From: Peduovirus P22H4
Length of the DNA stretch: 31,342 bases
Direction: 5' to 3' (one strand)
Sequence record: NC_049385.1
Below the pieces are notes generated by a model. It worked only from the letters and a program-made list of their open reading frames with translations, was not told the DNA's origin and did not search any database. A program made the position numbers and the translations under genes. Of the stretch, positions 26,514 through 31,342 are shown in pieces. Position 1 is the first letter of the stretch. Every line of letters starts with the position of its first letter.

Positions 26514-28788
26514 AGCCTCCGGGCGTTTTGTCCCTCCGTCAGCATTTGCCGCAGGCACCGGTAAGGCGTTTACCGGTGCTTATGCATGGAACGCGCCACG
26601 CGAGGCCGTCGGGCGCGAAAGACCCCTTACACGTGACGAGATGCGTCAGGTGCAAGGTGTTTTATCCACGATTAACCGCCTGCCTTACTTTTTGCGCTCG
26701 CTGTTTACTTCACGCTATGACTACATCCGGCGCAATAAAAGCCCGGTGCACGGGTTTTATTTTCTCACATCCACTTTTCAGCGTCGTTTATGGCCGCGCA
26801 TTGAGCGTGTGAATCAGCGCCATGAAATGAACACCGACGCGTCGTTGCTGTTTCTGGCAGAGCGTGACCATTATGCGCGTCTGCCGGGGATGAATGACAA
26901 GGAGCTGAAAAAGTTTGCCGCCCGTATCTCATCGCAGCTTTTCATGATGTATGAGGAACTCTGCGATGCCTGGGTGGATGCGCATGGCGAGAAAGAATCG
27001 CTGTTTACGGATGAGGCACAGGCTCACCTGTATGGTCATGTTGCTGGCGCTGCACGAGCTTTCAATATTTCCCCTCTCTACTGGAAAAAATACCGTAAAG
27101 GGCAGATGACCACGAGGCAGGCATATTCTGCCATTGCCCGTCTGTTTAACGATGAGTGGTGGATTAGTCAGCTTAAAGGCCAGCGTATGCGCTGGCATGA
27201 GGCGTTACTGATTGCTGTCGGGGAGGTCAATAAAGACCGTTCTCCTTATGCCAGTAAACATGCCATTCGTGATGTGCGTGCACGCCGCCAGGCAAATCTG
27301 GAATTTCTTAAATCGTGTGATCTCGAAAACAGGGAAACCGGCGAGCGCATCGACCTTATCAGTAAGGTGATGGGCAGTATTTCTAATCCTGAAATTCGCC
27401 GGATGGAGCTGATGAACACCATTGCCGGTATTGAGCGTTACGCCGCAGCAGAGGGTGATGTGGGGATGTTTATCACGCTGACCGCGCCGTCAAAGTATCA
27501 CCCGACACGTCAGGTTGGAAAAGGCGAAAGTAAAACCGTCCAGCTAAATCACGGCTGGAACGATGAGGCATTTAATCCAAAGGATGCGCAGCGTTATCTC
27601 TGCCGTATCTGGAGCCTGATGCGCACGGCATTCAAGGATAATGATTTACAGGTCTACGGTTTGCGTGTCGTCGAGCCACACCACGACGGAACGCCGCACT
27701 GGCATATGATGCTTTTTTGTAATCCGCGCCAGCGTAACCAGATTATCGAAATCATGCGTCGCTATGCGCTCAAAGAGGATGGCGACGAAAGAGGAGCCGC
27801 GCGAAACCGTTTTCAGGCAAAACACCTTAATCGGGGCGGTGCTGCGGGGTATATCGCGAAATACATCTCAAAAAACATCGACGGCTATGCACTGGATGGT
27901 CAGCTCGATAATGATACCGGTAGGCCGCTGAAAGACACAGCTGCTGCTGTTACCGCATGGGCGTCAACGTGGCGCATTCCGCAATTTAAAACGGTTGGTC
28001 TGCCGACAATGGGGGCTTACCGTGAACTACGCAAATTGCCTCGCGGCGTCAGCATTGCTGATGAGTTTGACGAGCGCGTCGAGGCTGCACGCGCCGCCGC
28101 AGACAGTGGTGATTTTGCGTTGTATATCAGCGCGCAGGGTGGGGCAAATGTTCCGCGCGATTGTCAGACTGTCAGAGTCGCCCGTAGCCCGTCGGATGAC
28201 GTTAACGAGTACGAGGAAGAGGTCGAGAGAGTGGTCGGCATTTACGCGCCGCATCTCGGCGCGCGTCATATTCATATCACCAGAACGACGGACTGGCGCA
28301 TTGTGCCGAAAGTGCCGGTCGTTGAGCCTTTGACGTTAAAAAGCGGCATCGCCGCGCCTCGGAGTCCTGTCAATAACTGTGGAAAGCTCACCGGTGGTGA
28401 TACTTCGTCACCGGCTCCCACGCCTTCTGAACACGCCGCAGCAGTGCTTAATCTGGTTGATGATGGTGTTATCGAATGGAATGACCCGGAGGTCGTGAGG
28501 GCGCTCAGGGGTGCATTAAAACACGACCTGAGAACGCCAAACCGTCAACAAAGAAACGGAAGCCCGTTAAAACCACATGAAATTGCACCATCGGCCAGAC
28601 TGACCCGGTCGGAAAGAATGCAAATTACCCGTATCCGCGTTGACCTTGCTCAGAACGGTATCAGGCCGCAGCGATGGGAGCTTGAGGCGCAGGCGCGTGG
28701 CGCGACCGTAAATTATGACGGGAAAAAATTCACGTATCCGGTCGCTGATGAGTGGCCGGGATTCTCAACAGTAATGGAGTGGAAATGA
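26503..28788 (+). CDS. A: Rolling-circle replication initiator (P2 gpA, HUH endonuclease)
   Basis: ATG at 26503 gives 761 aa, the P2 A length; HUH motif HWH at codons 399-401 (nt 27697-27705); tyrosine pair YIAKY with Y at codons 450 and 454 (nt 27850-27864). Confidence 0.9.
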   Translation: MAVKASGRFVPPSAFAAGTGKAFTGAYAWNAPREAVGRERPLTRDEMRQVQGVLSTINRLPYFLRSLFTSRYDYIRRNKSPVHGFYFLTSTFQRRLWPRIERVNQRHEMNTDASLLFLAERDHYARLPGMNDKELKKFAARISSQLFMMYEELCDAWVDAHGEKESLFTDEAQAHLYGHVAGAARAFNISPLYWKKYRKGQMTTRQAYSAIARLFNDEWWISQLKGQRMRWHEALLIAVGEVNKDRSPYASKHAIRDVRARRQANLEFLKSCDLENRETGERIDLISKVMGSISNPEIRRMELMNTIAGIERYAAAEGDVGMFITLTAPSKYHPTRQVGKGESKTVQLNHGWNDEAFNPKDAQRYLCRIWSLMRTAFKDNDLQVYGLRVVEPHHDGTPHWHMMLFCNPRQRNQIIEIMRRYALKEDGDERGAARNRFQAKHLNRGGAAGYIAKYISKNIDGYALDGQLDNDTGRPLKDTAAAVTAWASTWRIPQFKTVGLPTMGAYRELRKLPRGVSIADEFDERVEAARAAADSGDFALYISAQGGANVPRDCQTVRVARSPSDDVNEYEEEVERVVGIYAPHLGARHIHITRTTDWRIVPKVPVVEPLTLKSGIAAPRSPVNNCGKLTGGDTSSPAPTPSEHAAAVLNLVDDGVIEWNDPEVVRALRGALKHDLRTPNRQQRNGSPLKPHEIAPSARLTRSERMQITRIRVDLAQNGIRPQRWELEAQARGATVNYDGKKFTYPVADEWPGFSTVMEWK

Positions 28789-29240
28789 TGGCAAAAATTC
28801 ACGAGGTAAAGCTGCACGCAAAATATTTTGACCTTGTGCTGGAAGGAAAGAAACGCGCAGAGTTTCGGAAAAATGACCGTAATTATGAGCGCGGGGACAC
28901 GTTGATTTTGCATGAATGGGGGCAGGGTGTGTTTACGGGGCGAAAGGTTGAAGCCCGGATAACAGATGTTACTGACCTGTCAGACTGGCTGGAAGACTAT
29001 GTCTTGCTAAGTATTGAGCTGCTTAATACAGGCGCATATGAGATTGTGAACTGGAAAGAACTTAGTGAGCGTGGCCTGGTATTCAGAATTAATCATGAAA
29101 TTATGCATCAGCTCGGCCTTGCTGTTATGTATGAACCAGAGACGGGGATGTCTGGCGGGGCAATGGTCGCCACGGATGGAGCATGGAACTATTCAGATGA
29201 ACAGATGGAGCGTGCACAGCAAAACGGGTGGCTTGGATAA
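28785..29240 (+). CDS. Hypothetical protein (P2 orf91-like) with an ASCH/DUF3850-like N-terminal domain
   Basis: ATG at 28785 overlapping the A stop, 151 aa; N-terminus IHEVKLHAKYFDLVLEGKKRAEFRKNDRNYERGDTLILHEW resembles the DUF3850/ASCH pattern as I recall it. Confidence 0.6.
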   Translation: MMAKIHEVKLHAKYFDLVLEGKKRAEFRKNDRNYERGDTLILHEWGQGVFTGRKVEARITDVTDLSDWLEDYVLLSIELLNTGAYEIVNWKELSERGLVFRINHEIMHQLGLAVMYEPETGMSGGAMVATDGAWNYSDEQMERAQQNGWLG

Positions 29241-29446
29241 TGCACAGAATACCAGGCGAGATACCGCACCATAAAACTAAAAATATCAAGCTGATGGCTA
29301 TTGTTCAGCGTTTACAGCGGATTATGGTCAACGAAAATCTGACGCCCGATGAGCTGGTCGGGTGTGCCGAAATAGTACGGGATAATTACGGGCGGCTTAA
29401 CTATATCGGTCAGTCCAGAGTTGCGCCACCACCACGCAGACGATAG
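29240..29446 (+). CDS. Small hypothetical protein
   Basis: ATG at 29240 overlapping the preceding stop; 68 aa, basic C-terminus; backbone-like GC. Confidence 0.45.
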   Translation: MHRIPGEIPHHKTKNIKLMAIVQRLQRIMVNENLTPDELVGCAEIVRDNYGRLNYIGQSRVAPPPRRR

Positions 29447-29669
29447 AGAACACCGCCAGTCGTGAAACTTGTTTTCAGGGCTGGCGGGGTTGAACAACGA
29501 GCGAAGCGAGACGTTAGTTGACAGACATATTTTTACTACGTTGGTGCTGGTTTTTGACGGTTGAAAGGAGTTAGGTTGGAGAGCTAACAACTTACAAATA
29601 TTCAAAAGTAAGCATCCTGTTGCTAACATGAGGTTGATTTTTTATGTGGATGATGCAAAAAGGATAGCT

Positions 29670-30401
29670 ATGGATACTATAATCGCTTTTCTATCACTCG
29701 CTTTTTTCGTTGCTTTCTTCATCGGGTTAATCAAGCCATCACTGGTGCGAATGCCAAACCGCAAACGTGCAAGTGCGGTTTATCTCGGAGGAGGTTTTGT
29801 ATTGAGCATAATTGGTTCAATACTCTATCCAACAGAAAAAAGCCAGCCAGTTGCTAAAACTGAAACATCAACCGTTGCAGAACACAAAGTCCAAAAAACA
29901 TTCGAATATGGTGAAAAAACACTCAAGGAATATCGGAACGAGTCAAAGAAAACACGACACGATATTGTGAATAGTTACATTGATTTTAAGGAAGTTCCAG
30001 CCACCGCGTCAGATGCGTTTTATGCCTGCATGAGTGAGTATACATTTACCAAAGATGATGAGTTGAAACTCGGTGATGTTCTTGGGTGGTGCTTTAATGA
30101 TTATGAAAATGACCCGAGTTCACTAAACAATAAAATCAATCTTGATACATTTCAGAGTAATTTTAGTGGTTGGGATGGTTCTTATCGTCCATTGGAAAAA
30201 CTAATTAAAGATAATATGAACGATGATTCATCTTATAAACATGTGTCAACGGTATATCATCTGGTTTTGAATAAAGACCCGCATGCCATTGTGAAAACCA
30301 CGTTTCGCGGAACTAATGCTTATGGCGGAGTGGTGAAACAGACGATTGCTGCGCGTGTCAATGTAGAAACAGGTGAGGTTGTATCAATTATAAGTGAGTG
30401 A
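29670..30401 (+). CDS. Hypothetical membrane protein (two predicted N-terminal TM helices); cargo gene 1 at the P2 tin/old hotspot
   Basis: ATG at 29670 preceded by AAAAAGGA; 243 aa; TM segments IIAFLSLAFFVAFFIGLI and AVYLGGGFVLSIIGSILY, then a soluble domain; AT-rich; no Walker A motif. Confidence 0.65.
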   Translation: MDTIIAFLSLAFFVAFFIGLIKPSLVRMPNRKRASAVYLGGGFVLSIIGSILYPTEKSQPVAKTETSTVAEHKVQKTFEYGEKTLKEYRNESKKTRHDIVNSYIDFKEVPATASDAFYACMSEYTFTKDDELKLGDVLGWCFNDYENDPSSLNNKINLDTFQSNFSGWDGSYRPLEKLIKDNMNDDSSYKHVSTVYHLVLNKDPHAIVKTTFRGTNAYGGVVKQTIAARVNVETGEVVSIISE

Positions 30402-30499
30402 ACTGTGCCAGAATGATAAAGATGCCAGCATTTATGCTGGCAATCATAAAAATAGTGACTAGCAAAAATTGGTGTCTGGTTTTAATGTGAGATTAGAAA

Positions 30500-31198
30500 A
30501 TGAATAGATGTAAATATATTTTAAGAGGTTTGTTGCTGAAGTTTAAAAGTATAAGTTCTATGCATTTGTTATTTGTTTTAATAACGGCTTGTCTATTCTT
30601 TTTTATAGGGTGTTACGTGGGTTATAGTGGTATTGGTTTGAATGGTGACACTAAATACCAATTAATTACAATACCTTTTTTGACCATGTTGGGTACTTGG
30701 GTTTCTGGGGTGGGAGCATTTTCTGCTGTTGCGACATCATTGTTGTTGGCACACCGTTCGCTAAAGGAAAATTCAGAAGAAATTGCTATTCGATATAGCA
30801 TGGTGTTAATGCCATCAATGTACTTACCTAGCACTACAGATACAGCAATATCAATAACCATAACAAACAAAAGAAAAGTAAGGAGTAATATTCAATCGGT
30901 TGTTTTGCAATTTTCTAATAATAAAGCAATGAATATATTGGTAAACCCCGGGACGCTTATCTCTGGCAAGTTACCGCATGTTTTAGAAGACTATGGTGAT
31001 ATATTGACGCTTATAATTCCAGAGAGCATTATCGCATCAGTAACTGATGAGGGGTTCGTAAAAGAATGTCAGGGGAATACTCTTGGAGAAGGTAGTGTCG
31101 TAGTTCACACAACGACAAAAACATTTGTAAAAAAATTAACATTACCTCAAATTAAGCCATTTAATGATAAATTTAAGTCTGTATTGACGAAACCGTAA
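30500..31198 (+). CDS. Hypothetical membrane protein (two predicted TM helices); cargo gene 2 at the P2 tin/old hotspot
   Basis: 232-aa ORF; TM segments LLFVLITACLFFFIGCYVGY and LITIPFLTMLGTWVSGVGAFSAVATSLLL, then a Ser/Thr/Val-rich domain; about 25% GC on the line counted; start uncertain (ATG 30500 has a weak RBS, alternative ATG at 30560). Confidence 0.6.
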   Translation: MNRCKYILRGLLLKFKSISSMHLLFVLITACLFFFIGCYVGYSGIGLNGDTKYQLITIPFLTMLGTWVSGVGAFSAVATSLLLAHRSLKENSEEIAIRYSMVLMPSMYLPSTTDTAISITITNKRKVRSNIQSVVLQFSNNKAMNILVNPGTLISGKLPHVLEDYGDILTLIIPESIIASVTDEGFVKECQGNTLGEGSVVVHTTTKTFVKKLTLPQIKPFNDKFKSVLTKP

Positions 31199-31323
31199 GA
31201 GGTGCGTTGCGTTGCATTTTTTTGCATCTTCAAGGATTAATTTCTGCATCTTTATTTTGCCAGTACTGATGTGCTTTTAATGGACTCATGCAACTGCATT
31301 AAAACCGCCCCATGAAGCGGGCG

Positions 31324-31332
31324 GGCGAGGCG
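31324..31332. other. cos: cos site, proximal 9 nt (GGCGAGGCG) of the P2 19-nt cohesive end
   Basis: Last phage bases before the terminal adapter; completes the cos 19-mer with bases 31-40. Confidence 0.75.
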
Positions 31333-31342
31333 CTGTCTCTTA
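31333..31342. other. Sequencing adapter remnant (start of CTGTCTCTTATACACATCT, the reverse-complement Tn5 mosaic end)
   Basis: Terminal CTGTCTCTTA matches the first 10 nt of the Nextera read-through adapter. Confidence 0.75.

Follow-up and report, generated by a model that had tools for sequence, protein, structure and literature searches.

The right end of the Peduovirus P22H4 genome (NC_049385.1) carries two small genes, referred to here as gene 1 and gene 2, next to the cohesive-end site cos. The window, meaning the whole stretch of 31,342 nucleotides (nt) that was analysed, is the cos-to-cos genome of a P2-like phage. The order of genes at its right end is the replication gene gpA, a DUF3850/DUF7415 "orf91-like" gene, an open reading frame (ORF) of 72 amino acids (aa), a 223-bp spacer, gene 1, a 98-bp spacer, gene 2 and cosR. 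Positions 29447-31332 are 100% identical to Escherichia phage 9W (OM475431, Peduovirus). This region is a hotspot for accessory genes that has been defined as lying between gpA and the portal gene gpQ (Rousset et al., 2022, PMC9122126). P2 itself has tin and old at the hotspot, between an orf91-type gene and cos, but on the opposite strand. An earlier note, prepared from the letters of the window alone, had placed the two genes correctly. Both are co-oriented + strand ORFs of the predicted lengths, they follow gpA, the orf91-like gene and the 72-aa ORF, and they lie directly before cosR. Hydropathy and AlphaFold2 (AF2) models also agree that each product has two N-terminal transmembrane (TM) helices followed by a soluble domain. 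The GC content of the genes (38.9% for gene 1 and 34.3% for gene 2) is low compared with 53% for the rest of the genome, yet the range of 25-35% put forward in the note was too low. The two genes and their parts are as follows.

29670-30401, + strand: gene 1, homologue of phage 186 Orf97, 243 aa (tblastn, phrog_3403).
29673-29831, + strand: membrane hairpin of gene 1, in which a basic loop (aa 22-33) connects TM1 (aa 2-21) to TM2 (aa 34-54, also given as about 31-54) (hydropathy, AF2 helices).
29901-30398, + strand: predicted periplasmic domain of gene 1 (aa 78-243), a helical subdomain and a 4-stranded sheet with invariant Cys120 and Cys141 (AF2 model).
30500-31198, + strand: gene 2, uncharacterised family, two TM helices and an immunoglobulin-like (Ig-like) domain, 232 aa (phrog_23429 and phrog_16957, both of unknown function).
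30557-30751, + strand: membrane hairpin of gene 2, in which TM1 (aa 20-44) and TM2 (aa 51-84) are joined by a short loop; no other part of the family is as conserved (alignment, AF2).
30782-31189, + strand: beta-sandwich domain (aa 95-212) and C-terminal helix (aa 215-230) of gene 2, the variable part (AF2 model).

Do the two genes belong together? The earlier note took them for a two-gene cassette, a candidate novel system, and proposed their co-occurrence across P2-like prophages as a check. The sample used for this check was 5426 complete E. coli genomes, in which many of the carriers are close relatives. Gene 1 is present in 84 of these genomes and the 9W type of gene 2 in 6, each time adjoining gene 1. 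In 42 of the 84, a member of the gene-2 family directly follows gene 1; its subtype is 9W in 6 genomes, P24A7b in 7 and AR0372 in 29. These three subtypes are mutually only 23-31% identical. The other 42 genomes with gene 1 have none of the three, and those sampled among them carry unrelated partners in that slot. In phage 186 there is no partner at all, orf97 being the last gene before cos, and in Erwinia phage EtG and Yersinia phage MDG45 only about 266-298 bp remain past the orf97 homologue.

The gene-2 family is also found without gene 1. This is the case at six loci from other genera, in at least five prophage lineages. Prophages of Enterobacter asburiae, the Enterobacter cloacae complex, E. 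hormaechei, Serratia and Cronobacter have it at the same hotspot with no gene 1 in the locus, and one relative lies among the head genes of a non-P2 prophage, again without gene 1. Salmonella phage PHB48 has both homologues, in the order tum, orf97, the 72-aa backbone ORF and the gene-2 homologue, so that a backbone gene separates them. Association is therefore not obligate in either direction. Within E. coli a gene-2-family gene always comes with gene 1 (42 of 42), whereas gene 1 comes with a gene-2-family gene in half of the cases (42 of 84).

A tight operon with a shared history is not what the locus looks like either. Between 9W and the USDA5905 prophage, gene 1 shows a synonymous divergence (dS) of 0.006, as against 0.16 in gene 2, where it is concentrated in the last third of the gene. 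This discordance indicates that the two genes have different recombination histories. The 98-bp gap with its stable hairpin also means that they are not translationally coupled. On balance, the reading we lean towards, with a little better than even confidence, is that the locus is a stack of two accessory modules at the cos-proximal hotspot, each a single gene and independent of the other. They would be neighbours because of the way in which the hotspot is built, with neither needing the other. The claim of a novel two-gene cassette is thus not supported, both because the genes are separable both ways and because the family of gene 1 already has a name in the 186 record and has since been catalogued.

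What, then, is gene 1? Its product is 77.6% identical to Orf97 of phage 186 (NP_052294) over 241 of 243 aa (tblastn, E 1e-117), and it matches phrog_3403 over positions 1-242 of 243 (E 8e-146). The longest ORF opens at an upstream ATG (29628), but all 35 aligned homologues open at the methionine of MDT/MEL..., which corresponds to 29670, and an AAGGA (29660-29664) lies 5 nt ahead of this ATG. The family comprises at least 159 clusters at 90% identity across Enterobacterales, with remoter relatives in Vibrio phages (e.g., ORF47 of VHML). The similarity to 186 Orf97 extends to the length of 243 aa, the architecture of two TM helices and a C-terminal domain, and the location near the right cos end downstream of gene A. 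By sequence, gene 1 is the P2-lineage counterpart of 186 Orf97 and a member of a known family. The importance of this is that the 186 RefSeq record (NC_001317) has a note on orf97 that reads "expression from plasmid blocks 186 infection".

One aspect in which gene 1 and 186 orf97 differ is their transcriptional context. According to the 186 record, the LexA-repressed p95 "SOS operon" runs tum, partial terminator t95a, orf97, t95b, with orf97 as its distal gene. A literature search on orf97 function turned up only a restatement of this, namely a 2017 paper repeating that tum and orf97 form the 186 SOS operon. The 9W copy has another gene after it and has neither tum nor a LexA box before it. 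No tum/DinI gene is present between 29200 and 29700, upstream of gene 1, and a search of the same interval for CTGT-N8-ACAG with up to one mismatch finds no LexA box, although it recovers the one in 186. LexA/SOS control of the 9W copy was rejected on this ground. The LexA/tum operon is a feature of the 186 context and not of the Orf97 protein family.

How is gene 1 expressed in that case? The earlier note proposed a sigma70-like promoter, TTCAAA-N17-TAACAT, in front of it. The sequence does exist, at 29601-29629, but it matches the consensus at only 8 of 12 positions and falls below the threshold of a promoter scan, which reported no promoter-like site on the + strand in 29447-29670. The homologous stretch of 186, between t95a and orf97, also has no annotated promoter. 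Expression is probably by read-through from the early/replication operon or from a weak promoter of its own. Since orf97 is SOS-induced in 186 and gene 1 has no good promoter in 9W, gene 1 may act mainly after induction or infection rather than while the lysogen is at rest.

In gene 1 the TM helices are joined by a basic loop. Over 36 homologues it has a mean of 4.6 lysines or arginines against 0.03 aspartates or glutamates, whereas the N-terminal tail of two residues is acidic. By the positive-inside rule the loop would be cytoplasmic and both termini periplasmic, so the C-terminal domain is predicted to be a periplasmic one on an inner-membrane anchor. The AF2 model has a mean predicted local distance difference test score (pLDDT) of 83, with most of residues 80-243 above 90, and in it a helical subdomain precedes a sheet of four strands. 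The family alignment of 36 sequences has two invariant cysteines, C120 and C141. In the model they are placed symmetrically on two consecutive antiparallel helices and probably form a periplasmic disulfide. The best fold matches are the periplasmic stress chaperones HdeA and HdeB. This is a resemblance of fold only; the sequence identity is 5-16%, and gene 1 adds a beta-sheet and a membrane anchor. A profile search of PDB sequences with gene 1 gave no significant match.

Together these features suggest a protein with a two-helix inner-membrane anchor, a basic cytoplasmic loop and a periplasmic domain of about 165 aa built from an HdeA/B-like helical bundle and a small beta-sheet. Its most likely role would be superinfection exclusion of P2/186-type phages at the step of DNA entry. 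Perhaps the periplasmic domain, sitting at the outer face of the inner membrane, hinders the incoming tail tip or the DNA-transfer channel. This proposal is built on the homology and on the block to infection that the 186 record notes for Orf97, whereas the membrane topology, the disulfide and the stage of infection affected are predicted. For gene 1, then, the superinfection exclusion suggested in the earlier note gains support through Orf97. For gene 2 it does not go beyond a guess. Orf97-type proteins are common in P2/186-type prophages of Enterobacterales, and an annotation about infection block now has a concrete model attached to it, in which a periplasmic and probably disulfide-bonded domain is held on a two-helix anchor.

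Gene 2 belongs to a separate, DIVERSIFYING family. A relationship with gene 1 was rejected by hhalign, and comparison with the curated cut-offs of Pfam, NCBIfam and PADLOC and with PDB sequences gave no significant match. In an exhaustive HMMER search, 44 clusters (50% identity) matched over their full length, and their members are all about 190-230 aa long. Relative to the USDA5905 allele, the ratio of nonsynonymous to synonymous divergence (dN/dS) is 0.31, and this purifying selection marks gene 2 as a real gene. The AF2 model has a mean pLDDT of 88 and consists of an N-terminal amphipathic helix, two TM helices (modelled as helices 20-44 and 51-90), a beta-sandwich and a C-terminal helix. 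TM2 is glycine-rich, with the motif MLGxWVSGxGAxxAV..SLWLA. The only invariant columns of the family are Trp67, Ala76 and Gly166, and the near-invariant ones are mostly in the TM helices, including Gly37, Gly41 and Gly65. In comparison, the beta-rich domain is far more variable, LPxxLxYGE and TT being among the few motifs that it keeps. By fold it matches generic Ig-like domains, and a viral structure library returned unnamed proteins only. Charge counts weakly favour an N-in/C-in topology, which would place the Ig-like domain in the cytoplasm.

What could such a protein do? One guess, held with low confidence, is that gene 2 encodes a self-contained exclusion or abortive-infection protein. 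The variable Ig-like domain would provide specificity, while the membrane or the entry of DNA would be the target of the conserved TM hairpin. The Kir-type layout of two TM helices and a cytoplasmic Ig-like domain and the TM effectors of abortive infection are alike in architecture only, and gene 2 differs from the Kir type in having no pore loop or selectivity filter between its TM helices. A PADLOC "2TM effector" model matches just 1 of 39 family members (E 0.035). Whatever its function, the family is a mobile and rapidly diversifying one in the last and most variable slot before cos. Gene 2 thus defines a second family, with two TM helices and an Ig-like domain, that turns over fast in this slot.

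The annotation of the gene-2 family is inconsistent between databases as far as the start is concerned, with versions of 193, 212 and 232 aa. An example is the copy in E. coli H10 (locus L004, 2671-3252), for which PGAP (the Prokaryotic Genome Annotation Pipeline) gives 193 aa from an internal GTG, dropping TM1. This copy has just four substitutions relative to 30500-31198 and no frameshift.

Neither gene matched a PADLOC defence family, P2 Tin, P2 Old or P22 SieA. The earlier note had argued against OLD and Tin, and both points hold. OLD (P2 Old), a nuclease family with ATPase and Toprim domains, was rejected because neither protein has a Walker A motif or a Pfam or PADLOC match, and Tin because the hhalign probability is 0.05% with the gene 1 alignment and 0.9% with the gene 2 alignment. 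P2 Tin and Old therefore share the hotspot with gene 1 and gene 2 without sharing homology. The PADLOC check recommended in the note was negative, with no match to either window protein in PADLOC-DB v2.0.0. When 36-39 members of each family were searched in the same way there were scattered matches (E >= 0.0007), each to 1-2 of the 36-39 sequences. Across Pfam, NCBIfam and PADLOC, nothing rose above the curated cut-offs for either protein, for these family members or for the alternative downstream genes. The recommended homology and fold comparisons gave a divided outcome. Gene 1 leads to 186 Orf97 by sequence and to HdeA/HdeB by fold, whereas gene 2 has no curated match and resembles generic Ig-like domains only.

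Phages make several small envelope proteins that stop the DNA entry of related phages, among them SieA of P22, Imm and Sp of T4 and gp15 of HK97. These would be functional analogues of gene 1, which has a matching location and, via its 186 homologue, a matching phenotype. SieA is the only exclusion protein that was compared by sequence, and homology was rejected for both genes (hhalign probability 0.1% and 0.3%).

Both families have in fact been catalogued before, as candidate single-gene systems of the hotspot. Entry 12 of Table S5B in Rousset et al. (2022, PMC9122126) is the gene-1 family ("2 TM", 210 occurrences) and entry 30 is a 218-aa subtype of gene 2 (also "2 TM", 119 occurrences). The 232-aa subtype of the window has no entry of its own in the examined part of that table. 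The exact 9W-type trio does appear in Table S5A, as "DUF3850/ASCH + hypothetical + hypothetical" (PMC9122126). Peptides of gene 1 and gene 2 found no match among the validated and additionally tested systems in the sections of that study that were searched. A PNAS 2023 paper on natural E. coli lysogens has no link to phage 9W. Gene 1 is a member of a known family with a recorded phenotype, and gene 2 of an uncharacterised but already catalogued one. What the locus offers is leads for prophage-encoded exclusion and not a new kind of system.

Several observations weigh against the view of two separate modules with anti-phage roles. The first concerns independence. In all 42 E. coli genomes with a gene-2-family gene, gene 1 is immediately upstream, and there is none with a gene 2 subtype alone. 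This one-way association could reflect cooperation, though many of the genomes are close relatives. The second concerns gene 1. The sole functional evidence for Orf97 is a database note on expression from a plasmid, and over-expression of a membrane protein can block infection non-specifically. Furthermore, 186 orf97 is SOS-induced and off in the prophage, which fits a role in lytic growth better than classical exclusion by a lysogen. The third concerns gene 2, whose proposed function is conjecture, whose topology call is weak and whose fold matches are generic.

What if the genes are not anti-phage genes? Gene 2, and possibly gene 1, might instead serve in envelope stress or host fitness, in immunity to a membrane-acting toxin, or in tuning the phage's own lysis or DNA exit. 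We consider this rather unlikely. The hotspot is known to hold non-defence cargo, such as partition systems and a cytolethal distending toxin, and of eight additional P2-hotspot systems assayed three gave protection (Rousset et al., 2022, PMC9122126). The likeness of gene 1 to stress chaperones, the lack of a PADLOC model match and the gene-2 relative among another prophage's head genes all point in this direction. What speaks against it is that Orf97, the counterpart of gene 1 in 186, is on record as blocking infection. The low GC content, the turnover of alleles and the variable C-terminal domain of gene 2 are also typical of conflict genes, though none of these is specific.

A different possibility concerns timing. 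Orf97-type proteins might serve the lytic cycle of the phage that encodes them. Produced upon induction or infection, they would shut out further injections by phages of the same type or alter the envelope, like Imm and Sp of T4. The plasmid phenotype would then be a by-product of untimely expression. This would suit the distal place of 186 orf97 in a LexA-repressed operon, which keeps it off in a stable lysogen, and also the 9W copy, which has no convincing promoter or LexA box and follows early/replication genes in the same orientation. However, the outcome would still be exclusion, and the difference from the explanation preferred here is mainly one of when it happens. The position in an accessory hotspot and the patchy spread (84 of about 807 E. 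coli genomes matching the region) show that the lytic cycle proceeds without any need for gene 1. We consider this account unlikely.

Could gene 2 be an immunity module that works alongside Orf97? A speculative version, to which we give about one chance in a handful, is that the gene-2 family is an unrecognised single-protein membrane immunity module, with the glycine-rich TM hairpin as effector and the fast-swapping Ig-like domain as phage sensor. With Orf97, one on each face of the inner membrane, it would form a two-layer barrier to DNA entry in the P2-like phages of E. coli. If true, this would explain why the gene-2 family is never seen in E. coli without Orf97.

A distinctly improbable alternative, in line with the earlier note, is that gene 1 and gene 2 form one cooperative system. 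Orf97 might for instance be the conserved periplasm-facing part and the variable gene 2 product its specificity or effector partner on the cytoplasmic side, the pair blocking DNA entry or triggering membrane-based abortive infection. The 42 of 42 association across three divergent subtypes, the joint presence of the homologues in PHB48, the co-orientation of the two genes, whose inner-membrane products are predicted to expose their soluble domains on opposite sides, and the presence of some partner downstream of gene 1 at 9 of 9 Peduovirus-type loci sampled all favour it. Against it stand the partnerless Orf97 of 186 with an infection block recorded for orf97 alone, the unrelated partners, the gene-2 relatives without gene 1, the intervening backbone gene of PHB48, the discordant dS and the hairpin-containing gap. 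The evidence against a link between the two genes is judged stronger than the evidence for one.

Two independent modules also fit the structure of the hotspot, in which boundaries are marked by hairpins. The remaining features of the right end are as follows.

29228-29446, + strand: 72-aa backbone ORF, the last conserved gene ahead of the variable region (ORF list; phrog_11386 match, E 4e-39).
29449-29518, + strand: boundary element "E", about 70 nt on the left edge of the hotspot; its GC-rich stem-loop (RNA fold -26.1 kcal/mol, z -4.8) has a GGTTGAACAACGAG...GCGAGACGTTAG tail after it.
29601-29629, + strand: putative promoter-like site TTCAAA-N17-TAACAT, proposed in the earlier note.
30423-30442, no strand assigned: intergenic palindrome TGCCAGCATTTATGCTGGCA between gene 1 and gene 2 (8-bp stem, -14.2 kcal/mol, z -4.5).
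31305-31332, + strand: hairpin close to cosR, together with nt 1-9 of the cohesive end of P2 type (GGCGAGGCG, 31324-31332), as compared with P2 cosR (GGCGAGGCGGGGAAAGCAC) and the 9W record.

Element E has the core GTTGAACAACGAG and no match in Rfam. The first 73 nt of the 29447-31260 stretch, which include it, are kept in many P2-like phages, and the core is present at the left edge of the hotspot in prophages without gene 1 as well. It lies upstream of gene 1 in 9W, IHE3034 and AR0372, and directly downstream of orf97 in 186 and of gene 1 in AR0372-, HCM28C- and DG343-type prophages. In the AR0372 type, two copies therefore bracket gene 1. Copies of the element were located in L012 (3240-3310), L008 (2775-2850 and 3745-3815), L014 (about 3589), L017 (about 3606), L024 (about 3220) and L013 (about 3325).

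The palindrome between gene 1 and gene 2 is not followed by a T-run on the + strand. Even so, all related loci have some strong hairpin right past gene 1, and in IHE3034 there is a canonical terminator at this place. The homology between gene-1 loci breaks within the last 60 nt of gene 1, at positions 674, 689/690, 707-713, 719 and 723 of 732. Taken together, the E copies, the hairpins and the break points lead us to infer a hotspot built of exchangeable single-gene modules with hairpin boundaries, in which the slot adjacent to cos turns over fastest. Element E marks module boundaries in the P2/186 hotspot, where it may be a terminator, an RNA element or a recombination linker, and is a lead for how hotspot cargo is exchanged.

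Other genes have been observed in the slot after orf97. In sampled E. coli prophages these include unrelated genes for a 260-aa C-tail-anchored protein (L002, 4067-4849), a 224-aa soluble protein (L007, 3892-4566) and a 429-aa soluble protein (L010, 3845-5134). They have a GC content of 34-39% and no Pfam or PADLOC match, and represent further hotspot cargo. In some prophages, namely those of E. coli E94 (L009, 3945-4913), E1 and bR_120_Kylling, an IS5, IS1 or IS3 insertion separates orf97 from the gene downstream. In E94 the annotation of this downstream gene lacks 15 codons at the N-terminus relative to the intact allele, a hint that the slot has been decaying in some lineages.

A pattern that mirrors the one in E. 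coli, with a conserved gene on the left and a variable one on the right, is seen in P2-like prophages of Enterobacter. There a soluble protein of 85-86 aa replaces orf97 directly upstream of gene-2-family alleles (L014, 3684-3944; L017, 3697-3954; L026, 3198-3455). It is 67-89% identical between loci, with no family match for the one copy scanned, whereas the neighbouring gene-2 alleles are 33-42% identical. Homologues of the 72-aa ORF occupy the same place in Enterobacter prophages as in the window, while in PHB48 the homologue is the gene that lies between orf97 and the gene-2 homologue.

The ends of the window deserve a brief comment. A search of 28700-31342 against Rfam gave no matches. 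Remnants of Nextera adapters are present at positions 1-30 and 31333-31342 (cgtgggctcggAGATGTGTATAAGAGACAG and CTGTCTCTTA). Each borders one half of the 19-nt cohesive end, which is of the P2 type, GGCGAGGCG|GGGAAAGCAC. Because adapter adjoins both halves, the contig is a whole linear virion genome from which the adapter was left untrimmed.

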